This document shows positions 9,982 through 25,700 of a stretch of DNA of 64,000 nt, piece after piece. Source of the DNA: a virus (Duplodnaviria > Caudoviricetes); IMG/VR virus record IMGVR_UViG_3300031669_000010, positions 23,422 to 87,421 of that record; one strand, written 5' to 3'. How positions within the stretch are numbered: the stretch's first letter is position 1; each line of letters begins with the position of its first letter. The notes beneath the pieces were generated by a model. That model was not told the origin of the DNA, ran no database searches, and was given only the letters and a program-made list of their open reading frames with translations. Both the position numbers and the translations under genes were made by a program.

Positions 9982-10362
9982 ATGAAAATAAAAAATGATT
10001 TCGTTACAAATAGTTCTTCCTCATCATTTGTATTTGAAGCATCGGAAAAGATTTTGCGAAAAGATATCGAGAAACATATGAGATTCTATTACGCTGAATG
10101 CTTCCGGTGCTTCACTAACAAAAAGAGTTTAACAGAGTTTACAGAAGCAGGCTACGGAGACTGGGTTTCAAAGGCAAGGGGTGAACCTGCTACATTTTGG
10201 AATATGGATCCATCCTGTTACAGAGAAGCATGTAAGATTTTAAATTGTGGTATGTTTGTCATCTATGCTTCTGTTGACAGGAACGATATGGACAGAGTTG
10301 AGAAGTTCCAGGATCTTGTGGAAGATCGTGGTGGAAGAATAAGAACCAGGAGTGGAGATTAA
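9982..10362 (+). CDS. MKxKxDFVTNSS-motif protein 5
   Basis: MKIKNDFVTNSSSSSF; directly upstream of a radical SAM gene. Confidence 0.75.
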   Translation: MKIKNDFVTNSSSSSFVFEASEKILRKDIEKHMRFYYAECFRCFTNKKSLTEFTEAGYGDWVSKARGEPATFWNMDPSCYREACKILNCGMFVIYASVDRNDMDRVEKFQDLVEDRGGRIRTRSGD

Positions 10363-10363
10363 T

Positions 10364-11410
10364 ATGAGTCAAGTTCGAATCGTAAATTGGCTGCTCACAA
10401 GAAGGTGTAATCTAAAATGTGAGTATTGTGCCATTGTTAAAAACTATAAGGGTAAACCGTCTAGTTATCCGGATATGAGACATTATATCAAACATGAAAT
10501 GCCAACCAATGTAGTCATTAATGCATTAAAGGGATTCAAGATTCATAATCCGAATGTATTTCATATATTCTATGGTGGCGAGCCATTGCTAAGACCTGAT
10601 CTTGCAGACATCATAAATTATTGTAATGAAAATGAAATCTACTATACAGTAATCAGCAACAATACTTCAGGCATTCAAGATCGTATAAGAATGCTATTTG
10701 ACAAAGTTGAATACATTGAGGGGTTCACAAGTTCTGTTGATCCAATCTTCAATGAAATTGGTGCTAAAGAAGACAGAGTCAAAAAGAGTATTGAAGGTCT
10801 GAGGCGATTAAAAGAAATTCAAGCTGCTGGAAAAGTGAAAGATGTTGTTGCTGAAATAACAGTTATGAAACACAATCAAGATCTTTTATACAGACTCATC
10901 CGAGAGTTGAGTGATGAGGAAATATATAGTGATATTACATTCGTTGATATTGCAAAAACTAAGTATTATGATTTTTCAAATGTCTTGGATGAAACATTTT
11001 TAGTTAGACCAACATTTGAACTAGCAGAAGAGTTGATCGACATTATAACTGATAATCGTTTATTGGTTCATATGAAGGACATTCTAATACCTAAGATGTT
11101 CGATACACTTCCATCGAATTTTGACTGTGAGATTGAAAAGGGTTTGCATAACTTGACAATTGATGCTGATGGTTCAATCAGATTGTGTTTAAGAATTAGG
11201 GGTATTGCATCTCCTTCATACAATGTGACTGAACTATTTGATCCAACATATCCTGAACTTATTTCTGCGGATGTGTATAGTGCAATAAAAGGTGATAAGA
11301 AGCACTACTGTTCGTTGTGTAACCATTCCTGTTTAATGATGAGTCAGTATTTTGATACAACTAATGAGGAAGTGGATACACTAATACATTCCGATAAACG
11401 GAGGGAGTAA
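10364..11410 (+). CDS. Radical SAM protein with C-terminal Cys (SPASM/twitch-like) extension
   Basis: CNLKCEYC, YGGEPLLR, C-terminal C...IDADGSIRLC...CSLCNHSC. Confidence 0.88.
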   Translation: MSQVRIVNWLLTRRCNLKCEYCAIVKNYKGKPSSYPDMRHYIKHEMPTNVVINALKGFKIHNPNVFHIFYGGEPLLRPDLADIINYCNENEIYYTVISNNTSGIQDRIRMLFDKVEYIEGFTSSVDPIFNEIGAKEDRVKKSIEGLRRLKEIQAAGKVKDVVAEITVMKHNQDLLYRLIRELSDEEIYSDITFVDIAKTKYYDFSNVLDETFLVRPTFELAEELIDIITDNRLLVHMKDILIPKMFDTLPSNFDCEIEKGLHNLTIDADGSIRLCLRIRGIASPSYNVTELFDPTYPELISADVYSAIKGDKKHYCSLCNHSCLMMSQYFDTTNEEVDTLIHSDKRRE

Positions 11411-11413
11411 ACT

Positions 11414-11755
11414 ATGGCAGACGAACCTACAAAAGATTCTGTAGATAGTGACATAATTGTTAGCGCAATAATGTTCTGGAAAAAGGTATACGAAGAGAAA
11501 GAAGTCATTATCAAATTTATAAAAAAAGATAAGACTAATCGAATCATGAGATGTACCTTAGATTTCAAAAAGATTCCTGTGAAAGATCAACCCAAAAGTG
11601 TCAACATTGAAGTCATTCTAAGATTAATTCAGAAAAACAAAATCATGCATGTTTATGATCTTGATAAAAAAGCATGGCGTTCGGTTCCGTTCGATAGGGT
11701 TGAATATATGGATACAAAGAATCGACGATATTTCACAAAGAAACAACCAGTATAA
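11414..11755 (+). CDS. Small SH3/WYL-like phage protein
   Basis: FIKKDKTNRIMRCTLD...VYDLDKKAWRSVPFDRV pattern. Confidence 0.65.
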   Translation: MADEPTKDSVDSDIIVSAIMFWKKVYEEKEVIIKFIKKDKTNRIMRCTLDFKKIPVKDQPKSVNIEVILRLIQKNKIMHVYDLDKKAWRSVPFDRVEYMDTKNRRYFTKKQPV

Positions 11756-11767
11756 AGGAGAATACAA

Positions 11768-12148
11768 GTGGGAATCTTAAGAGAAATTCTCAAGGAAATC
11801 AAGTCCGACGATAACCTTGAGAAAGTAAGAATACTATGTGATCAAATAATCAAAGAGGAAAAAGATAATGTTGTACATTATCAAATACTTCCGAAAGGTC
11901 CAAATCTATTTCTTGTATTAGAAGTTCCTGGAAGAATTAAAGATGAGATTGCCTTTCTTGCGCTTGAACGTGAGAGCGAAGATCTTTGGTTATGTGTATT
12001 ATTTATTACAACTATGAAGGAGTATGCATTAAGAGAAAAGAATCCTCCTTCAATAAAGAGGCAAAGGGTCTGGGAGATCAATGATCATAGACCAGAAAAG
12101 GTCTTAACTGAATATGCAAAACGTTACAAATTTCTACGAGGTGAATAA
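11768..12148 (+). CDS. Hypothetical protein
   Basis: GTG start with AAGGAG RBS; stop abuts the E2-like gene. Confidence 0.65.
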   Translation: MGILREILKEIKSDDNLEKVRILCDQIIKEEKDNVVHYQILPKGPNLFLVLEVPGRIKDEIAFLALERESEDLWLCVLFITTMKEYALREKNPPSIKRQRVWEINDHRPEKVLTEYAKRYKFLRGE

Positions 12149-14746
12149 ATGTTAAATGGGTATCTAACAGATGAAATCCGAATTAATTCTAAATATGCAC
12201 ATGTATATAGATCTGAATATCCCGATAACCTTGAATCAGATTCTATTCCAATTGTTCATAGACATTCTTTGTTGACAGAAGATTATCTGCGACGCATGAC
12301 AAGTGGAATTTCTGGAAATGGAATGAGTATTCTTCCTCCAAATTGCAGATACATTGAAAATGTAAAACAAGGTAATATTGTGATAATTGAAGAACCTCCT
12401 GCATTTAGAACAATTTCAATCTATATGAGCTTTACTAAGGAAGTTGAAAGATTGAAGGCGGAAGGAAAACTTGCTGAGTATGGTTTTGATGAAGATTTTG
12501 CAAGAGAGTCAATGGCCAAAAGATTCACTCTAGCATTTCCATATGTCATATTTATTTTATACTTCACAAGATACAATGAATTGTCCTGTGGCCAAGCATA
12601 TCTGAGAGTAGCTAGACTTTCAGGCCTATCTGATTACCTTCTAAAAATACCACTCACAAACATTGCAGAGAGTCAGTATATCTGTTTTGGTTCTAAGGCT
12701 GGTGGTTCGGCAGAAACATTAAATGCAGGTGTTGAAAAAGTAATCGACGTATTTTGGGGAGCTGAGTTTAACACCGACTATACATATAACTATACTGCAT
12801 ATAGAGATATTGCCGGCGTAAATTCTTATATGGAATGGCAAGCATTGTCAGCAAGTAATCCCATGTTCATTTATAATGTTGATTGGATGAAGATTCCAAT
12901 GAATATTGGGCAGGCCCTTGATGAAGTAAAACGCCATTATAAACTGTCAAGTTCGTCTGATATACAATATAAAAATCTTTCCAGTATGTTTTCAGTACCT
13001 CTGGATTCAGGAAAGGATGAGGCTCCAACTAAGAGATCTCGAAAGAAATATAGATTGTTTTATGATGTTGCCCAAGGTATATTTCTTGATGAGAATTACT
13101 ATGTCCATGTGGGTGATTCGTTCCAAAACAAAAGTGGGACGATGTTTTTCATCAACTCCTTTATTAGTTTTGCAGACAGTGGTGATGTTAAATATGTCCG
13201 CGTTGAAAGAGAAGACGGAAGACTTATCGTATTAAAATTTACCAAATCAGTCTCACACTATTTAAAAGAGCGAACTAAAGCTCTTCGTTATGAAGCAGAA
13301 GGAATTCTGAAAAATGGTGTTGTCGTTAAAGAGAATGATATTATCAAACTGACAAATGCAATTGGAGATGCGGTATATAAGAAAGTCACTTTCATTCGTA
13401 AATCCCAAGAGGGATTCCACGAAGGACGGTTTGGTGATGGATTTTACATTCTAGAAAACACCGAAGGTGAAGTATATGATGTTACAAATCCAGAATATCG
13501 AGGTATTAAACTGAAGAAAAATACAGATTATCTGTACATGAAAACTGAAAATGAGGTACCATTCAACCAAGGGTGTATTGTAAATTTCACAGGCATAGAA
13601 GCAGATAATCGTGGAAGATTAAATATCGACATGACTCACAAAGACAATGATTTTAGAGGGAGTCCGTACAAAATTCCATTGAATCAGTCAAACTCAAACA
13701 TACGACTGTATGAAATGGATCAAGTTAAACCTCTACCACCTGTTTTCAGACTTGGTCGAAAGTTATTAGTCAACAGAAAGAATGATAGAAATCTGTATGA
13801 AAATTCTGTCTTCGGAACTCCGTATGGTATTATATACGATTCTGGATATGGTAATATGGATAAAGCGAATCCCGATGAAATAAAGAAATACATGCTTGGG
13901 GAAGATAAATTCCAAGTTAAAAGTTTCGATTTAGACATTGAGTTTAATATAGGAGATAAGGTTGTCGTGGCTGATTTTGAAAATCCGATCAATATGCTTT
14001 CAGTGAAAACCATTCAGGGGTTTAAGTTCACAGAAGGAGTTGGAGATATTCATTTCATATTAGCAGATAAACAGGGCAACCTACAACAAGAAGAATATGT
14101 GAAAGGAAGATATGGAACAATTCATACCGGCAGAATTAGAAAGATTTCAAATGTTTTTGGTGAACTGACAGCTGGAACAAAGATCAAATCTAATATAGCT
14201 GGATTCCCACACTTCGCAAAAAAAGACACAAATATTATCATTGGTTTTCTGACTGATACAGGAGGACCAGATCCATTGGTTCTATGCTCCAATTGCTGTA
14301 CAATGTGGTATAGAGATGTGGTGGAATGCTTTAAACATATTCCAATAAAGTCAGCTGAATGGGCGAAAACAGCACATTCTCCAATTGATGTAGCTAAGAT
14401 TAAATATCAACCAGGTGACATTCTTATAGGAACTGGTAGTAGCGATTATAGATCCAATACCGGATGGTTGTTATTTAAGGTCACTGGCTCAAACAGTATT
14501 AAAGCGATGGATTTTAATTACTATAATGCATGGCCAGATTATTTCACTCTGGATAGATATATTACGACTAATTCAAAATTTGATTGTATCCCTAACCCAC
14601 GAATCGGTCCCAAGGCTCAAAGTGAGATGGAAATAATTCGATCATGGCCGAATATGCATGGTTATTATTTTTCATGTGATAAAGCCAAATTCCGATTCCT
14701 AAACGATGAGAGGAGTATGGTGAATGTTCAAAGTAGTTCTGAATGA
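12149..14746 (+). CDS. Prokaryotic E2-like protein (family D/PRTRC-B-like) with long C-terminal extension
   Basis: LAFPYVIF...IPLTNIAESQYICFG (Cys179)...FWGAEFNTD; directly upstream of JAB, E1 and Ubl. Confidence 0.75.
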   Translation: MLNGYLTDEIRINSKYAHVYRSEYPDNLESDSIPIVHRHSLLTEDYLRRMTSGISGNGMSILPPNCRYIENVKQGNIVIIEEPPAFRTISIYMSFTKEVERLKAEGKLAEYGFDEDFARESMAKRFTLAFPYVIFILYFTRYNELSCGQAYLRVARLSGLSDYLLKIPLTNIAESQYICFGSKAGGSAETLNAGVEKVIDVFWGAEFNTDYTYNYTAYRDIAGVNSYMEWQALSASNPMFIYNVDWMKIPMNIGQALDEVKRHYKLSSSSDIQYKNLSSMFSVPLDSGKDEAPTKRSRKKYRLFYDVAQGIFLDENYYVHVGDSFQNKSGTMFFINSFISFADSGDVKYVRVEREDGRLIVLKFTKSVSHYLKERTKALRYEAEGILKNGVVVKENDIIKLTNAIGDAVYKKVTFIRKSQEGFHEGRFGDGFYILENTEGEVYDVTNPEYRGIKLKKNTDYLYMKTENEVPFNQGCIVNFTGIEADNRGRLNIDMTHKDNDFRGSPYKIPLNQSNSNIRLYEMDQVKPLPPVFRLGRKLLVNRKNDRNLYENSVFGTPYGIIYDSGYGNMDKANPDEIKKYMLGEDKFQVKSFDLDIEFNIGDKVVVADFENPINMLSVKTIQGFKFTEGVGDIHFILADKQGNLQQEEYVKGRYGTIHTGRIRKISNVFGELTAGTKIKSNIAGFPHFAKKDTNIIIGFLTDTGGPDPLVLCSNCCTMWYRDVVECFKHIPIKSAEWAKTAHSPIDVAKIKYQPGDILIGTGSSDYRSNTGWLLFKVTGSNSIKAMDFNYYNAWPDYFTLDRYITTNSKFDCIPNPRIGPKAQSEMEIIRSWPNMHGYYFSCDKAKFRFLNDERSMVNVQSSSE

Positions 14747-16310
14747 TGGGCAGAATGAAATGCCCGAAGACGATATTTATTATATTATTGGAAAGGAGGG
14801 TGTGTACCTCAAGAAGAAACTTGGGGTGATGGATAGTCTTGCACCTGTAAAAAATATCTCCATTTTGCAAAGTGTAATTTCATCTGCACAAATGCATATA
14901 ACACCCATACCAGGCATGTGGATTGCCAAAGTTATGAACTTCTTCCGCGAAGTTTATAAAGAGTATAGATCCGAAGCCATTGTTCTGTTGTTTTACAATG
15001 AGGAAACAGGACATCATAAAATTGTTCCCCCTCATCAAAAAGTTGCAGGAGCATCATGTGACTATGATAAAGGGATCACTATAGAAGGTTATACAATGAT
15101 CGGAACCATTCATAGTCACGGAAATATGTCAGCATTTCATTCCGGTACTGATGATAAAGACGAAGAACATTTTGATGGTCTTCATATGACATTTGGTGAT
15201 TTGGACGAAGACTATCCAAGTATATCAGCATCAATTGTGTCAAATGGTTTCCGGCAAATGATTGAACCAGAACAATATATTAAAGATTTGGTTTGTATGG
15301 CCGAGACAAATTCTGTTGATAATAAAGCTGTTAGAACGGTTTATAAATGGGTTGACGGGGTGCTTACTGAAGATGAAGAAGCTGCTCCAAAATATACCTA
15401 TCAATGGAAAAAGTTTGACAGGCGATATGATGTTACGTGCTCAGACCGTGAGAGAATCTTTAACAAGAAGTGGATGCGCATGGTCGAAAAGGGTACCTAT
15501 ACTTACAAGAGTTACAATGCTGGTTCCGGTTACAGAAGTCTATATGGATGGACTGGTCATGGATGGGGTCAAAATTATGATCGTGGTGCATGGTCCCAAG
15601 CTGGTCGACTCCTACCACCCGGAGCACAAACACAAACGAAAGGTGTACCTCCTCAGAACGTTGGCGTTACAGTTAAACCTCTTGAATTTCCCCCGCATAC
15701 ACAAGATGGAGACTTTATGCCTTGCGTGACATGTACTCATAGAATGTGCAAACTTACCTCTGAAATTGAAGAGGATGATTTTGAAGAAATGTATTATTGT
15801 GAGAAGTGTGGAGAGATTGTTAAGGAGGACGCAGATTTGGTCATTATATGTTCAACATGTAAAACCGATGATCATCTTATTCTCTTAGATAAAGATGATC
15901 TATTGACCAATCAATATATACCAGGTGATGAATACGACCACATGTTTGACAGGGATTCTGCTGGAGTTATCAGACAAGAAGAAACCCTTTATGTTAAATG
16001 CAAAGAATGTGGTAATGGTTTCCATATGTTTGAGGACGATTCTATATGTCCTTTCTGTTATGCCCAAGTAAACGAGAGTTATTCCTCGGAAGATGCCTTA
16101 GAGGTTCAAACCGAAAACGATTCAGGGGCCTTTCTCAATCAAGAAACAGAAGACGCAAACAATGCAGCATTATTGGAAGCGGCGAATCGAGAAGATGAAA
16201 CGCTCGAAAGAATACCCGAACCAGGATCAAATGTAATACCGATACCTGAAAAGAAAGACACCGGTTTAGCAGCAATGTTCCGGAAAGTCTTCTCAAAGGA
16301 AAGAATATAA
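14724..16310 (+). CDS. JAB/JAMM metallopeptidase (PRTRC-A-like) with Cys-rich C-terminal region
   Basis: E84 plus H130-S-H132-x7-S140-xx-D143 JAMM motif; five CxxC pairs in the C-terminal half. Confidence 0.9.
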   Translation: MFKVVLNDGQNEMPEDDIYYIIGKEGVYLKKKLGVMDSLAPVKNISILQSVISSAQMHITPIPGMWIAKVMNFFREVYKEYRSEAIVLLFYNEETGHHKIVPPHQKVAGASCDYDKGITIEGYTMIGTIHSHGNMSAFHSGTDDKDEEHFDGLHMTFGDLDEDYPSISASIVSNGFRQMIEPEQYIKDLVCMAETNSVDNKAVRTVYKWVDGVLTEDEEAAPKYTYQWKKFDRRYDVTCSDRERIFNKKWMRMVEKGTYTYKSYNAGSGYRSLYGWTGHGWGQNYDRGAWSQAGRLLPPGAQTQTKGVPPQNVGVTVKPLEFPPHTQDGDFMPCVTCTHRMCKLTSEIEEDDFEEMYYCEKCGEIVKEDADLVIICSTCKTDDHLILLDKDDLLTNQYIPGDEYDHMFDRDSAGVIRQEETLYVKCKECGNGFHMFEDDSICPFCYAQVNESYSSEDALEVQTENDSGAFLNQETEDANNAALLEAANREDETLERIPEPGSNVIPIPEKKDTGLAAMFRKVFSKERI

Positions 16311-17002
16311 TGAGCGATACTACTGAGCTTTATATTTCTGTTATTGGTCTTGGTGGGGTTGGAACTATTTTAATCGAAAGATTATGTAGATTCCTAAACT
16401 ATTCAAAAGATCTTACCGCAGAATTCCTTCTGGTGGACGGAGATGAGTATGAGCAGAAGAATTATGAAAGGCAGGAGTTTTCAAGAATTGGAAACAAAGC
16501 CGATATAAAAGCCACCGAGTTGGAAATGAAGTTTAAAGATTTGCGGTTCGATACGCTCGAAGCCTTCATAGACGAATCAAATATTGAGAACGTTATTAAA
16601 GAAGGTGATATTGTTTTTCTATGTGTTGATAATCACAAATCCAGAATGATTGTTTCAAATTACTGTAAAAAATTACAAGATGTTATTTTAATTTCTGGCG
16701 GGAATGATTTCACAGATGGTAATGTACAGATTTACGTCCGGAAGGCGGGGGCCGATTTAACTCCGGATCTATGTGCATATCATCCTGAAATTGCAAATCC
16801 CGATGATAGGTTACCGCAAGAAATGAGCTGTCAAGAGCTCGCAAACTCAGATCCTCAGCTATACTTTGCTAATTTGGGGGTCGCTACTCTTATGTGTTGG
16901 GCTTTCTACAACGCTGTTGTTAGAGGGCAATATGAACGGTCTGAGGTTTACTTCGATCTTACAAGTATGACCACAGATGCAAAAATCCGAATGGTGAAAT
17001 AA
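16310..17002 (+). CDS. E1-like ThiF/MoeB adenylating enzyme
   Basis: GLGGVG, DGDEYEQKNYERQ, LCVDNHKSR, SGGN, SCQE (Cys174, putative catalytic) followed by QLYFAN. Confidence 0.9.
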   Translation: MSDTTELYISVIGLGGVGTILIERLCRFLNYSKDLTAEFLLVDGDEYEQKNYERQEFSRIGNKADIKATELEMKFKDLRFDTLEAFIDESNIENVIKEGDIVFLCVDNHKSRMIVSNYCKKLQDVILISGGNDFTDGNVQIYVRKAGADLTPDLCAYHPEIANPDDRLPQEMSCQELANSDPQLYFANLGVATLMCWAFYNAVVRGQYERSEVYFDLTSMTTDAKIRMVK

Positions 17003-17028
17003 AATAGAGAAGTAAGGAGATTAAAATC

Positions 17029-17493
17029 ATGGCTAGAAGTTTTTCGAGAGAAGCACTGGAAGAAAAGACGTCCAAGGAACTTAAAAGAATGTGTGTTGAT
17101 GAGCTCAATATCGTCGGCGTCACCAAGAAACCCAAGGACGATGTTATCAACGCCATTATGGCACAGTACGGCGCGGCATCTAAACCCGCTGCAATCGCCA
17201 AAGATACGAAGCTGACCGGTATCAAATTCACGGGTCAAAGTACCCTGACGAAACCGGATTCTCCGTTTGGCTCCCGTACAACCACAACCATTCATGTTTC
17301 CTGTGGTGCATCCTCAGGTAACTTCCCAGTAGCCGGCAAAACAGTGAAAGACGTTGGGGACTTCCTTCGTGAGGTTCTGAACGTGGATCGTCTGTCCACC
17401 GGACTGGTCAATGGTAAAGAAGTCGGCGCAGACTATATTCTGAGCTCCGGCGACAACCTGGAATTCCTGAAACCAGCAGGAAAAAAGGGTTAA
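17029..17493 (+). CDS. Ubiquitin-like (beta-grasp) protein with N-terminal Rho_N/HeH-like module
   Basis: C-terminal VSCGA...GKTVKDV...LVNGKEV..DYILSSGDNLEFLKPAGKKG*; N-terminal LEEKTSKELKRMC.DELNI.G.TK.PKDDVINAI. Confidence 0.85.
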   Translation: MARSFSREALEEKTSKELKRMCVDELNIVGVTKKPKDDVINAIMAQYGAASKPAAIAKDTKLTGIKFTGQSTLTKPDSPFGSRTTTTIHVSCGASSGNFPVAGKTVKDVGDFLREVLNVDRLSTGLVNGKEVGADYILSSGDNLEFLKPAGKKG

Positions 17494-17502
17494 AATAAAT
17501 GC

Positions 17503-17526
17503 GGAGGGAGCCTTCGGGTTCCCTCC
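17503..17526. other. Stable cUUCGg hairpin right after the Ubl gene
   Basis: GGAGGGAGCC-TTCG-GGTTCCCTCC; no U-tract on the + strand, so possibly a stabilising/processing hairpin or a minus-strand terminator. Confidence 0.7.
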
Positions 17527-17546
17527 CATACAAAGGACTGAAAAAT

Positions 17547-18146
17547 ATGAATCCAAATACACAAAGAATTCTTGCTGAGAATAGCATTGATAAAATTTCT
17601 TTTTATTTCATCAATAGCCCCATTGTAAATAATGCATTTACAGTGTGTATTCTCATAAACTCTTTTGAGAAGAGAATCGAAGCAAGAGGAGTTTCTATTT
17701 GTTCTCTCATGGATACTTTTTCCAAATCCGAAGGTAAGAATAAAGCGTTTGGACGTGCAGTTAAAGCTATCGCAAGGAGAGAAAATAACTGGAAGATTAA
17801 TGGGTCCGGTCGAGATGATGAATTTGTTCCACGGTCGTTCAAAGTGAAAACAGAAAAAGATGATGATGGTTTTAGGGGCGGAGTTGCACCCGAACTTCAA
17901 CGAATAAATCCACACCTGCCAATCAGAGTTCAAGATAGTGGTAGGTTTAAAAAATATTCATTTGAAATTCCTGCAAGTTATCCCATGAGACTGGCAAACT
18001 CTTTATTCAAATATAAGTCACACTACCGACCTGTTCCAGTTGGAGATGAAGAGAACGAGCTTCTTAAGAGGCTAACTATATTTACAGAACCAATCGAAAA
18101 TGAAAGTTCCAATTTACTTGTTTCAACATTTGGAATCGAAGATTAA
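17547..18146 (+). CDS. Hypothetical phage protein
   Basis: AAGGA RBS; ARGVSICSLMDTFSKSEGKNKAFGRA motif recalled from small phage proteins. Confidence 0.7.
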   Translation: MNPNTQRILAENSIDKISFYFINSPIVNNAFTVCILINSFEKRIEARGVSICSLMDTFSKSEGKNKAFGRAVKAIARRENNWKINGSGRDDEFVPRSFKVKTEKDDDGFRGGVAPELQRINPHLPIRVQDSGRFKKYSFEIPASYPMRLANSLFKYKSHYRPVPVGDEENELLKRLTIFTEPIENESSNLLVSTFGIED

Positions 18147-18160
18147 GGTTCTTAGTTCGA

Positions 18161-18195
18161 GGGGGGTTTCTAACAACCCCCCACATTTATTTTTT
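18161..18195 (+). terminator. Putative intrinsic terminator
   Basis: GGGGGGTT-TCTAAC-AACCCCCC followed by a T-rich tract. Confidence 0.7.
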
Positions 18196-18213: not shown

Positions 18214-19074
18214 GTGGTGTACAAAAATGTAGTAATAATTGGTCTCGGTACACTTGGTGGGTATATCGCAGAGGCTGTAACCAATTTAGACAGCACCGAA
18301 AAAATAGTAATAATAGACCACGATATAGTTGAACAGAAGAATTTGAAAAATTCCATATACAGGCAAATTGATATAGGAAGTCCTAAGGTAGAAGCTTTGA
18401 AAGATATTCTTCAACATGAACAACCAGATGTTGAAGTATGGGCGTTTCATGCAAAGTATGAAGAAGGCAAGACAAAAATTCCAAAAGAAGATTTGGTTAT
18501 TGATTGCAGGGACTTTACCTATAATAGACAAAGTGAAATTGATGCAAGATTCTATATATCATCAAGATATTTAATGGCTGATTTTAGAAAGAATATTAAA
18601 TACAAACAGCAGCAAGTAGGAAAATACATTTTACAATTATCAAGAAATGATTTGAGACATGCTGCGTCAATTGGTTCTATGTTAATTCATAGTAATACAA
18701 TTGAATCTCTAATAAAAAGCCAATCTGTTCAAAAATATGAACTCGATTATGTCAAACACACGGACAATTGTAGATATGACGTTGTGTATGAAAATGTAGT
18801 GGGGGAAGAAAAGTTTGTTAATCTCCCCGATAAGATCGTCCCAATTATGGAGATGAATCAAAAAGGGGATTTAACCATCTTTCTCGGAAGTAGAGTATAT
18901 CCAATTTCTGAATCAGTGATACCAATTAAAAGTTTGGTAAACAGTTCTGATGTGATCTCGAGTCTTGCATCTGTAGTTGCTTGCCAAACAGATTTCAATA
19001 ATTTTGTGATATCTATATTCAAGGAAAATAGTAATGTTTTTATTGAACTTATACCTGATACTGGAGCTGCGTGA
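18214..19074 (+). CDS. Second, divergent ThiF/E1-like protein
   Basis: IIGLGTLGG, DHDIVEQKNL, GSPKVEAL, VIDCRD; lacks the NLxRQ Arg. Confidence 0.78.
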   Translation: MVYKNVVIIGLGTLGGYIAEAVTNLDSTEKIVIIDHDIVEQKNLKNSIYRQIDIGSPKVEALKDILQHEQPDVEVWAFHAKYEEGKTKIPKEDLVIDCRDFTYNRQSEIDARFYISSRYLMADFRKNIKYKQQQVGKYILQLSRNDLRHAASIGSMLIHSNTIESLIKSQSVQKYELDYVKHTDNCRYDVVYENVVGEEKFVNLPDKIVPIMEMNQKGDLTIFLGSRVYPISESVIPIKSLVNSSDVISSLASVVACQTDFNNFVISIFKENSNVFIELIPDTGAA

Positions 19075-22751: not shown

Positions 22752-25700
22752 TTGAAAATAATTAATCCAATAGCTGCAATACAAGACGAAGATAATAACA
22801 TCTTCACAATCAGACAAAGAGACTATGACAATATTTTACCTATCGTGCAAGAAATAGTTAAACCTGTTGAGGAAATTGGTTTCACAATCAATGATATTAG
22901 TTTGAAAGATTCACGTTTTTCATCGGGAGAGCTTGCCAAGACTCTTAAACAAACATTGGCTATAAAATTACAAAAAGGAACTTCTGAAATTGATCTTAGT
23001 ATTTTCATTCCCAAGCTTGTTGATGGAAACTATATTTATATCAACGGACGAAGAAAAATTCCTTTACTACAGCTTTTTGACATTCCGATTGTAACAAGAG
23101 GAGAAAGCATAAAGCTTCGCACAAATGTAGCAACCATAATGGTATTTTCAGATAAAGAAGCCCCATTCATTCGGATTAGCTTCTTGGGTAAAAAGATACC
23201 ACTTTCTTTGATACTGCTTGCGTATCATGGAATAGAACTTTGTAAAATCAAATATGATTTAGATGGTGATATTGACGAAGAGAGCGAAAACCTTTTTGAA
23301 ATACTCAGATATGATTTGAGAAGTTATATTGAAGAATCAGTTGGATATGCTCCTGATGATTTTTTATTAGAACTCGGAAGGATGTATTCAAGATATAATG
23401 CAAAATCAAAGGGGGAAGATGTACTATATGCACTTGATTTAATTCCAAAAGTTGATATAATCACAGCACGATTTATGACTTACCCAACAATCTTGGAAGA
23501 GATTTGTGAAATATTAAAGACAGGTGAAGTCGATGATATGGAGTACACAAACAAACGGGTGAGATGTTTTGAGTATATGGTAATTGCAAGAATTTCAAAG
23601 ATCATATTCGATTTGTGTTTTTCAAATCGAACTGCAAGACAACCGAAGTTCAATATCAACTCAACACAAATCTTATCAGATTGTAATGTTTCAGATATTG
23701 TTCAATTTGATTTCTCAATCAACCCAATTGAGGAATTGACAAAACTATCAAGAATAAGTCTTCTTGGTCCCGGCGGATTTAAAAGGGAAAACATTCCCAA
23801 GCATTTGAGAGATATTTGCCCAAGTATGTTTGGCCGTCTATGTCCTGTTGATACTCCAGATAGAGATAACTGTGGGGTTCTTCAAAATGTTGTCCCGAAT
23901 GTACATCTTGATCAAAATTTGAAATTTGAAGCAGAGGTTCAGGATAAATTTCCTCTCTCAATTCCTGTTTCAATGACTCCATTCTTAAAGCATGACGACC
24001 AAACAAGATTACAAATGGCTGCATCCCAAATGAGGCAGGCGATCATGCTGAGAGAATTTGATGTTCCTCTTATCAGTTCAGGGTCAGAAGGACTATATAC
24101 ACCACACACTCAATTTGTCAAGATGGCTAAAAAACCTGGAGAGGTTGTTCATATTGACAAAGAGTATATTATAGTGGTATATGATGATAAAGATGCTGAC
24201 ATATTTGATATTCGTTATAGAAAAATTTATGTTGAACACATGGATTTCATGAATATCTATGTTAAACCAGGAGACCGGTTTAGTGCAGGAGACATTTTAG
24301 CAGAAAGTAATTTCTGTAAAAATGGAAAAATTAACATTGGCAAAAATCTTCTGACTGGTGTTATGGTTTATTATGGTAACAACTATGAGGATGGAATCGT
24401 TATTTCAGATAGACTTGTCAATGAGGACACCCTAACGTCAGTACACTATAAGGATTTATCATTCACAGTAACCCCAGATAAAGTTCTTCTATCATTAAAG
24501 GATGGTGAATATAAACCACTACCAGATGAACTTGAAACAATTGAAAAGGGTGATACATATGCCATTTTGCAAAAGCTTAACTCTGACGAACAATATTCGG
24601 TATTTGCCGAGAAGGTACTGTTAGAAACCCGGAAAAAGTATATCGTTTCCGAAGTTAATTTATATGGTAACTCTTGGAACGAAGAGGTGCCTGAATATAA
24701 AGAGTGGCTTGAATCCAAACTCTCGAAGCAACAAGACAAAGAGAAGTATCTTCAAAAAGTCCTGAAAGATGTTATGTCGAAAGACGAAGCAATGAAACTT
24801 ATCAGGGAAAAGAGTCTTGACAAATTCTCATTCACCGGTAAGTATAAAGAGAAGCGTGAGAGAATTAACGGATTATATGTTGAAATGTATGGAGTTCATT
24901 TCAGGAGAGTTCAGGTTGGTGATAAATTAGCTAATAGGCATGGCAATAAAGGAGTCATATCTAGAATTGTTCCTCATGATAAAATGCCACAGCTACCTGA
25001 TGGACGCCACATGGATATTTGCATCAATCCACTTGGTATCATATCGAGAATGAATATTGGTCAATTATATGAAATGCATTTGGCCATGGCGGTTGATGCA
25101 TTGAAGCAAAACATATTAAAGATGTTAGATAAAGATGTTGAGCAGAGCGAGATAAAAGAATACCTGCTGGGGTTCATAAAGATTGTTGATCGGACAGAGG
25201 ACAATTGGTATTATACACAATTCTCCGAACAGATGCCGGAACAACTATCATTGGACTTCATCAAAAATCTTACAATCATCCAAGCTCCATTTCAATCTTG
25301 CAAATTACAGCAGGTTGATGAAGCAATGCAATATGTTGGAAGCGATTTTAAATTTCCAATATATGATCCATTGTCAAAAGTTAAATTGGCAAATCCTGTT
25401 GCAGCTGGTTTCATTTACTTCTTCAGGATGGTTCATATTGCAGAGGAAAAACTTGCTGCAAGAGGGATTGGTGCATATGCAAGACGAACCCTCCAACCAT
25501 TAGGTGGTCGAAAGAATAAGGGTGGTCAGAGATGTGGTGAAATGGAAACTGCGTGTTTGATTGGGCATGATGCTCCAATTAATCTACATGAGTTTCTTAC
25601 AACCAAGTCCGATTGTATTGATTTGAAAAATAATTACATTCGCAATTTCATCGATCCAAATTTAACAGATGAAAGCAAAGAATTAGATACAACACCCGAG

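Follow-up and report, generated by a model that had tools for sequence, protein, structure and literature searches.

Whether a phage can own, and keep, machinery for tagging proteins with a ubiquitin-like (Ubl) modifier is the question raised by a stretch of viral DNA of 64,000 nucleotides (nt) (Duplodnaviria; Caudoviricetes; IMG/VR record IMGVR_UViG_3300031669_000010, positions 23,422 to 87,421), hereafter the window, in which adjacent genes are predicted to encode an E2-like protein (E2L), a JAB/JAMM metallopeptidase, a ThiF-type E1 (ThiF1) and a Ubl tag. Ubl conjugation in prokaryotes has so far been met either as a means by which hosts resist phages (CBASS Cap2/Cap3 and Bil) or as uncharacterised cargo of plasmids and of integrative and conjugative elements (ICEs; PRTRC and Bub). 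What is new here is a virus-owned machinery that jumbo phages of a very large uncultured clade keep as a fixed part of their core genome, and its architecture is unusual as well, with an E2 joined to a long array of barrels, a tag that carries a head of a DNA/RNA-binding type, and doubled E1-like and E2-like genes. We suggest that the cassette is probably a phage-encoded, self-contained pathway for Ubl protein conjugation and belongs to the core genome of a jumbo-phage clade with genomes of about 310 kb. Literature searches found no paper describing a phage cassette of the present type, and it appears to be undescribed; beyond the gene content, we infer its function throughout from sequence.

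A fixed gene block in a jumbo-phage clade

The window is part of the genome of a tailed jumbo phage, as had been held in the original prediction, which was made before any database search. It encodes a terminase large subunit, a tail sheath, a baseplate wedge, a helicase and a topoisomerase II, together with SbcCD and the unsplit beta' and beta subunits of a multisubunit RNA polymerase (RNAP). The largest related contig measures 309,612 bp, and two relatives, with lengths of 223 kb and 248 kb, are 71% and 79% complete, respectively, by a CheckV-type estimate, from which we derive a genome size of about 310 kb. No close cultured phage was found by megablast, which gave no match, or by tblastn of RpoC, for which the best identity was about 29%. 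Searches of 50,697 phage records by megablast with the cassette and by tblastn with E2L and with the Ubl gave zero matches.

A scan of IMG/VR with the single E2L sequence was empty, whereas an alignment of the family, used as the query, retrieved relatives, and about 45 distinct related loci were drawn from IMG/VR, ENA, NCBI and Logan. Gene order is identical in all of them, at protein identities of 28–82%, and reads SbcC, (x126a), radical SAM, WYL_2, x126b, E2L, JAB, ThiF1, Ubl, (x215), ThiF2, x125, small open reading frames (ORFs), RpoC and RpoB. Identity to the relatives is 28–60% for E2L and 42–82% for the Ubl, and both ThiF1 and the Ubl are conserved to the level of RpoC. Because this order recurs in every locus at such identities, the cassette cannot be put down to chance, and its constant position between SbcCD and rpoC/rpoB indicates a core module of the clade rather than an accessory island. 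The survey of synteny that the original prediction had proposed thus finds the block conserved throughout, and instead of being peculiar to one phage the cassette belongs to the fixed core of a large clade of uncultured jumbo phages.

The N-terminus of E2L, run with phmmer against 1.84 billion representatives, matched 748 clusters (50% identity) at E ≤ 1e-3, and nearly all of the best 150 clusters measure 800–960 amino acids (aa), indicating that the fusion of the E2 to the barrels is old and has been maintained. Contigs from three DNA runs showed near-identical sequence in other samples.

The four co-oriented ORFs are all present on the + strand with the junctions originally described, E2L and JAB overlapping by 23 nt, JAB and ThiF1 by 1 nt, and ThiF1 being separated from the Ubl by a gap of 26 nt. 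The residues then singled out were likewise all found in place (Cys179 of E2L; E84, H130, H132, S140 and D143 of the JAB protein; Cys174 of ThiF1, within SCQE; and the AGKKG-stop end of the tag). The description of these four genes as a complete operon holds for the genes but not for the size of the unit, as ThiF2 and x125, the latter an HPN-Cys E2-like protein, are conserved too (Table 1); the start of x125 overlaps the stop of ThiF2 by 4 nt.

Table 1. Positions of the cassette genes and adjoining features in the window
Feature	Position	Strand	Remarks
x126b, conserved protein of 126 aa, no family	11768..12148	+	adjoins the 5' side of E2L in every related locus
E2L, 865 aa	12149..14746	+	Prok-E2_D-type E2/UBC-like domain and about 600 aa of tandem barrels (predicted)
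JAB/JAMM metallopeptidase, 528 aa	14724..16310	+	Prok-JAB match; invariant JAMM set
ThiF1, minimal ThiF/MoeB-type E1, 230 aa	16310..17002	+	ThiF match; invariant motifs
Ubl tag (predicted), 154 aa	17029..17493	+	HeH/Rho_N-like head, linker, ThiS/TGS-like beta-grasp
x215, variable gene, 215 aa	17499..18146	+	in about one third of related loci
GC-rich hairpin and T-run, terminator-like	18161..18182	+	lies between the Ubl unit and the unit of ThiF2 and RNAP
ThiF2, degenerate E1-like	18214..19074	+	ThiF match on the Rossmann part
x125, minimal E2-like, 125 aa	19071..19448	+	HPN-x8-C; E2-like predicted fold

Enzymes, tag and a proposed pathway

Profile and fold evidence agrees with the earlier assignment of the four proteins to the E2, JAB, E1 and Ubl families. 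ThiF1 matches Pfam ThiF with 62.4 bits (E 4.8e-17), and the residues expected of such an enzyme for nucleotide and Mg binding, for the Arg finger (N-x-x-R-Q) and for the crossover-loop Cys (GxGGxG, D43, R54-Q55, D107-N108, R112 and C174) show no variation across 35 sequences; its nearest solved proteins by profile are the ThiF-type 9egc, UBA5 and MoeB. The JAB protein reaches 27.7 bits with Prok-JAB, for which the cut-off is 25, and matches PRTRC_A at E 9.6e-11, which is below the cut-off of that family. Its JAB domain occupies residues 1–255 and is followed by a linker that is variable and rich in Gly, then by paired CxxC zinc ribbons and an acidic tail. The five JAMM residues given above (HxH-x7-S-xx-D) and the pair C334/C337 are invariant in 35 relatives. 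The C-terminal half of the protein (15700–16310) varies among relatives from no CxxC zinc ribbons to about eight pairs, and its profile bears a weak resemblance to zinc ribbons in archaeal RNAP subunit B and in TFIIE (E ~0.04–0.05); searched against the Protein Data Bank (PDB), the JAB profile returned zinc-ribbon proteins only.

For E2L, Pfam Prok-E2_D is matched by 42 of the 53 family members at E ≤ 0.01 (best E 3.3e-8), and C179 and N171 are invariant among relatives. The AlphaFold2 (AF2) model (pLDDT 88.9) places these two residues in a loop that follows a helix and a four-strand meander and precedes further helices, within a predicted E2 domain of about residues 58–260. The structure search called for by the original prediction returned E2 enzymes as the best fold matches of residues 58–245, with about 12 of them aligning over 114–121 residues at middling Z scores (VIA-align, Z 5.0–5.8, root-mean-square deviation 4.3–5.3). 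The remaining 600 or so residues are modelled as tandem small barrels of SH3/Tudor/KOW/BAH-like type, with matches to Tudor, BAH, KOW and CarD-type domains at Z 5–6.8, and Foldseek matches include Spt5 KOW arrays and a fungal Ube2O (9quf, E 3.7e-4). The E2L profile found no relative among PDB sequences, an NCBIfam search gave nothing at E ≤ 1, and a BFVD fold search returned uncharacterised viral proteins only. No invariant His occurs between C179 and residue 300 in the 53 E2L sequences. One barrel resembles CarD/Mfd/NusG (Z 5.1–5.7); docking onto RNAP through this barrel found no support at the sequence level and is kept only as a lead.

The small protein x125 is a candidate for a second E2-like protein. 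Its H57, N59 and C68 are invariant, P58 is conserved in at least 90% of sequences, and HPN-x8-C is present in 38 of 42 relatives. The AF2 model scores well (pLDDT 91.7, pTM 0.81), and the top 16 VIA-align matches, like all 50 Foldseek matches listed, are E2 enzymes, though at weak scores. Pfam UQ_con is matched by 4 of 38 members, all below the cut-off (best E 0.006). Six-frame scans with UQ_con gave no match in five related records, a search of the ESM Atlas with x125 gave no usable match, and hhalign detected no relation between x125 and E2L.

Doubled in the same way is the E1-like gene. ThiF2 is present in all related loci and matches ThiF at E 4e-17 over residues 5–116 only. Its homology to ThiF1 extends over some 100 aa, in which the Rossmann fold and the Mg-binding Asp are kept and R54-Q55 is replaced by N-S. 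Its remaining C-terminal domain of about 170 aa, without family, ends in ETGAA in 37 of 46 relatives, and could be a fused Ubl/ubiquitin-fold domain (UFD)-like module or a substrate-like tail. The idea of a fused Ubl or UFD at this end found no support from hhalign, which shows no relation between the Ubl and the C-terminal part of ThiF2. A complex prediction for ThiF2 with x125 (score 0.04, mark 0.32) was counted neither for nor against an interaction.

The candidate tag was compared with known families through its homologues. TGS is matched by 35 of 41, ThiS by 26 and Ub-Mut7C by 12; the hits are weak, and all three are beta-grasp families, suggesting that the C-terminal domain of the tag is a beta-grasp. 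An N-terminal HeH/Rho_N-like head precedes it, Rho_N being matched by 32 of the 41 homologues. None of them matches Prok_Ub (PF14454) at E ≤ 0.1, and it is the tail motif alone that resembles this family; NCBIfam gave a weak MoaD match only, and the ESM Atlas returned the tag's own viral clusters only. The best PDB profile match, an FHA domain (E 0.014), was put down to a common 'NG..v....L..GD' strand motif and dismissed as no relative.

The tag ends LEFLKPAGKKG-stop, and its terminal Gly and G-[KR]-K-G tail are invariant. The protein stops at this Gly in 28 of 44 relatives, whereas one extra Cys follows in 14 and other short extensions in 2. A co-occurring strain in an independent marine-sediment run has a Ubl that reads ...KKGC-stop at window positions 17473–17493. 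An earlier statement that the Ubl needs no maturation consequently fails in about one third of relatives, those with the extra Cys, and on the same ground the JAB protein is probably a maturation protease as well as a deconjugase.

We propose the following pathway, all steps of which are taken from the known chemistry of the E1, E2, JAB and Ubl families. The JAB enzyme would trim any residue that follows the terminal Gly of the Ubl. ThiF1 would then bind the beta-grasp domain, adenylate the C-terminal Gly with ATP and take it over as a thioester on Cys174, from which the Ubl would move to an E2 cysteine, either Cys179 of E2L, Cys68 of x125 or both, and finally to lysines of target proteins. 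The barrel array would probably select these targets, E2L acting as an E2/E3 hybrid of the UBE2O kind, and the JAB enzyme would remove the tag again. ThiF2 may be the inactive partner in a split, eukaryote-like E1, or may form a second arm with x125. The catalytic signatures on which such a pathway would depend (the JAMM set, the E1 motifs and C174, C179, HPN..C68 and the terminal Gly) are kept across relatives at 28–82% identity.

The HeH head and the fixed RNAP neighbourhood make it more likely that the targets, whether from the host or from the phage, are proteins associated with DNA or transcription than that they are parts of the virion. A still more specific version can be imagined, in which all six genes form one cascade: a split ThiF1/ThiF2 E1, an HPN-type E2 and a giant E2/E3 docking on RNAP or the nucleoid would tag the transcription machinery with a DNA-binding Ubl and so switch transcription from host to phage. 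We consider this version fairly unlikely. If the cassette is active at all, protein tagging would form part of the programme by which phages themselves infect, as it does for many eukaryotic viruses, and the cassette would constitute a compact orthogonal tagging system.

Several observations weigh against conjugation by this cassette. The window's own E2L scores 15.2 bits with Prok-E2_D (cut-off 25), and its Ubl stays below every Pfam cut-off (13.7 bits versus 22.5 for ThiS), the beta-grasp assignment being drawn from many weak profile hits. The E2-fold Z of E2L, at most 5.8, is middling, in a range where the tool warns that a match can reflect a common arrangement, and the matches of x125 are weak (Z 3.8–5.0 over 85–93 residues; Foldseek E 0.06–1). 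The tail of the tag is Lys-Gly and not Gly-Gly, and neither an E3 nor a target has been identified. Finally, ThiF1 is a single adenylation domain, at 230 aa of the minimal size seen in sulfur-carrier systems, and the neighbourhood of the cassette includes a conserved radical SAM gene.

These last two features would suit a sulfur carrier, in which ThiF1 would adenylate a ThiS/MoaD-like protein for conversion to a thiocarboxylate, which would in turn donate sulfur to a phage-specific modification of nucleic acid or of a cofactor, perhaps together with the radical SAM protein, leaving the JAB enzyme a part in maturation only. The best profile matches of the tag are ThiS/TGS/MoaD-like, and ThiF1 is itself of the ThiF/MoeB type. 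The radical SAM gene is fixed about 1 kb upstream in all loci, and the one-Cys extension of the tag in 14 of 44 relatives recalls both the CysO-Cys adduct, which is cleaved by a JAMM enzyme, and the tail of QbsE, which is removed by QbsD. Nevertheless, a sulfur carrier seems unlikely to us, as the block constantly includes two different E2-like proteins, each with an invariant cysteine, and sulfur-carrier systems, to our knowledge, are without E2-like proteins. The tag also has its K-G tail where known carriers have G-G, and bears the HeH head, and the radical SAM protein is nearest to viperin/SPASM types (below their cut-offs) and not to known sulfur-insertion enzymes. Five related records yielded no rhodanese, a weak absence given their completeness of 33–79%, cysteine desulfurase not having been searched for. 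A second ThiS-like gene was likewise not found in five related records, the longest of 248 kb.

The same HeH/Rho_N head, and neighbours that are DNA-metabolism and RNAP genes, could instead point to an acceptor other than protein, with the C-terminus of the Ubl joined to a nucleic acid end, a nucleotide, a lipid or a small amine and the HeH domain positioning the tag. In line with this, the top PDB matches of ThiF2 include MccB and PaaA, which activate peptide C-termini for non-protein chemistry. The barrels of E2L, however, resemble protein- or peptide-binding modules, and we know of no precedent for E2-dependent non-protein conjugation in prokaryotes, such that this alternative appears very unlikely.

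A different role for the whole set would be counter-defence. Host Bil systems tag phage tail proteins (PMC11601596), and Cap3-type JAB enzymes reverse CBASS priming (PMC10097602). The phage JAB could accordingly strip host Bil or CBASS tags from phage proteins or cGAS-like enzymes, while the phage E1 and E2 divert or use up host Ubls and the phage Ubl serves as a decoy. ThiF2 also resembles Cap2 E1 modules, matching the PADLOC models of CBASS Cap2 E1-E2 proteins at E 4e-14, in their E1 part only; beyond such generic E1 similarity the PADLOC models are unmatched. Anti-defence genes are typically patchy in distribution, whereas the gene content and position of this cassette are invariant over a deep clade in which E2L falls to 28% identity, and the tag that the phage itself encodes is highly conserved (42–82% identity among relatives). 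A position fixed over such depth speaks for a part in the programme of the phage itself and against accessory counter-defence, which we regard as distinctly unlikely, and a conjugation pathway that works on the phage's own behalf remains our preferred interpretation.

Neighbouring genes and related phages

Upstream of the cassette (9982–12148), genes for a radical SAM protein, a WYL_2 Sm-like barrel protein and two unknown proteins of about 126 aa adjoin it at a fixed position in all relatives. Of the latter, x126b has invariant E31, G44, E67 and R68 and is possibly an accessory subunit. Neither x126b nor x215 found a match in Pfam, NCBIfam, PHROG or PADLOC, and x215 is probably not a core part of the cassette. 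The hairpin between x215 and ThiF2 has an 8-bp stem with six GC pairs, followed by a T-rich tail, and most related loci in which the gap between Ubl and ThiF2 is foldable have a strong hairpin, with another sequence, at the corresponding place before ThiF2. The G+C content of the window peaks over the ThiF1-Ubl stretch (16001–18000), at 0.41 as against 0.33–0.37 elsewhere.

Among relatives, clade contigs occur four times within archaeal metagenome-assembled genomes (Thorarchaeota, two Thermoplasmatales and Pacearchaeota) and one further time within a bin labelled 'uncultured bacterium' (these include GCA_048882605.1); their placement in archaeal genomes is probably due to mis-binning. A bacterial host is hinted at by a pilin-like N_methyl gene in relatives and by the beta/beta' RNAP. 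A PTPS/QueD-like gene and one for a ResIII/DEAD helicase lie upstream of SbcCD in relatives (loci L001:189-623 and L003:1873-2295), possibly a sign of deazaguanine-type DNA modification in the clade.

Comparison with known systems

Protein conjugation is established for sets of E1, E2, JAB and Ubl from Bil and CBASS systems (PMC11601596, PMC10557695). Conjugation was also predicted for the operons of class 6d by Iyer, Burroughs and Aravind in 2006 (PMC1779556), a class to which, by inference, the PRTRC cassette (TIGR03734-03742) corresponds; the function of the PRTRC cassette is itself unstudied (PMC13366799). For viruses, work on Asgard viruses has noted ThiF genes only, and a comparative review of jumbo phages from 2021 makes no mention of any Ubl system.

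On its profile matches, the phage cassette has its closest known kin in PRTRC and class 6d but is not a member of them. It shares with PRTRC an E2 of the Prok-E2_D family, a JAB nearest to PRTRC_A, a tag ending in Gly and an arrangement on one strand, and with class 6d the combination of a Prok-E2_D E2 that has a conserved Cys with adjacent JAB and E1 genes. ThiF1 matches PRTRC_ThiF (TIGR03736) over its full length (residues 6–222; 38.6 bits, E 7e-10), and the JAB protein matches PRTRC_A (TIGR03735) with 41.6 bits, scores that stay far below the respective cut-offs of 144.75 and 101.8. In NCBIfam, PRTRC_B, C, D, E and F are matched by none of the phage cassette proteins. No ParB (PF02195) was found in five related records of 101–248 kb, 33–79% complete, a scan that covered these records and not the window. 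In these respects the profile evidence agrees with the view, taken in the original prediction, of a ParB-less, phage-adapted relative of PRTRC-type cassettes.

The differences are equally clear. The phage E2 is fused to about 600 aa of barrels, its tag combines HeH with a ThiS/TGS-like domain and is not of the Prok_Ub type found in PRTRC and class 6d, and the cassette adds a degenerate E1 and an HPN-type E2. It lacks the His that is absolutely conserved C-terminal to the catalytic Cys in class 6d. Its setting is the core genome of a lytic-type jumbo phage, and not a plasmid or an ICE.

With Bil, CBASS Cap2/3 and Bub the phage cassette has its logic in common but not its architecture. Bil (BilABCD, types I and II) likewise has separate Ubl, E2, JAB and E1 proteins, a reversible logic of Ubl transfer to lysine and the pairing of inactive and active adenylation modules (PMC11601596). 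BilD, however, unites an inactive adenylation domain, an active one and a CYS domain (IAD-AAD-CYS) in one chain, whereas ThiF1 and ThiF2 are encoded by separate genes and are without a CYS domain. Bil belongs to the host and acts against phage, and no match at the level of sequence was found between it and the phage cassette. In type II CBASS, Cap2 is a fused E2-E1, whereas the phage E2-like genes are separate, and the PADLOC E1-E2 models match the E1 part of ThiF1 and ThiF2 only. The joining of an E2 domain and SH3-like substrate-binding barrels in one large polypeptide recalls UBE2O, in which the order of domains is reversed and to which there is no sequence similarity, making this an architectural analogy only.

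Sulfur-carrier pairs of the ThiS/MoaD-ThiF/MoeB kind, including CysO/Mec+ and QbsE/QbsD, share with the cassette an E1 of the minimal ThiF type and a beta-grasp (predicted in the phage) that resembles ThiS, and, as in the two latter systems, the phage JAMM enzyme could cut a short C-terminal extension. The phage differs from them in its E2-like proteins, in its HeH head and in a tail of K-G instead of G-G. Neither the C-terminal Gly-Gly nor an above-cut-off family match that would mark a sulfur carrier is seen in the phage Ubl.

A further comparison is with a cultured phage. Relatives of ThiF1 were found in 5 of the 50,697 phage records, one of which is Bacillus phage vB_BauM_KLEB27-3, a jumbo phage of 216 kb. 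Its genes gp194–gp199 (OM634661.1, 167647–173637) include Prok-E2_D, JAB and ThiF in this order, preceded by a polyubiquitin-like protein of 235 aa with four head-to-tail Prok_Ub repeats, each ending in AGVKG; two unknown genes lie between the latter and Prok-E2_D, and GenBank annotation is informative for JAB and ThiF only. The trio order is shared with the present clade, the clade profiles match the KLEB27-3 proteins at 7e-29 for ThiF1, 2.4e-15 for JAB and 3.9e-9 for E2L (within a six-protein set), and the AGVKG tail is close to the AGKKG of the window's tag. Both phages are jumbo, KLEB27-3 being of myovirus type. KLEB27-3 differs in having its fourfold poly-Prok_Ub precursor upstream and a stand-alone E2 of 255 aa without barrels, in that no second ThiF or HPN-type E2 is annotated nearby, and in that its cassette does not lie next to RNAP genes. 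With this simpler homologous cassette and its polyubiquitin-like precursor in a cultured phage, the question of whether phages conjugate Ubl tags of their own is open to testing at the bench.

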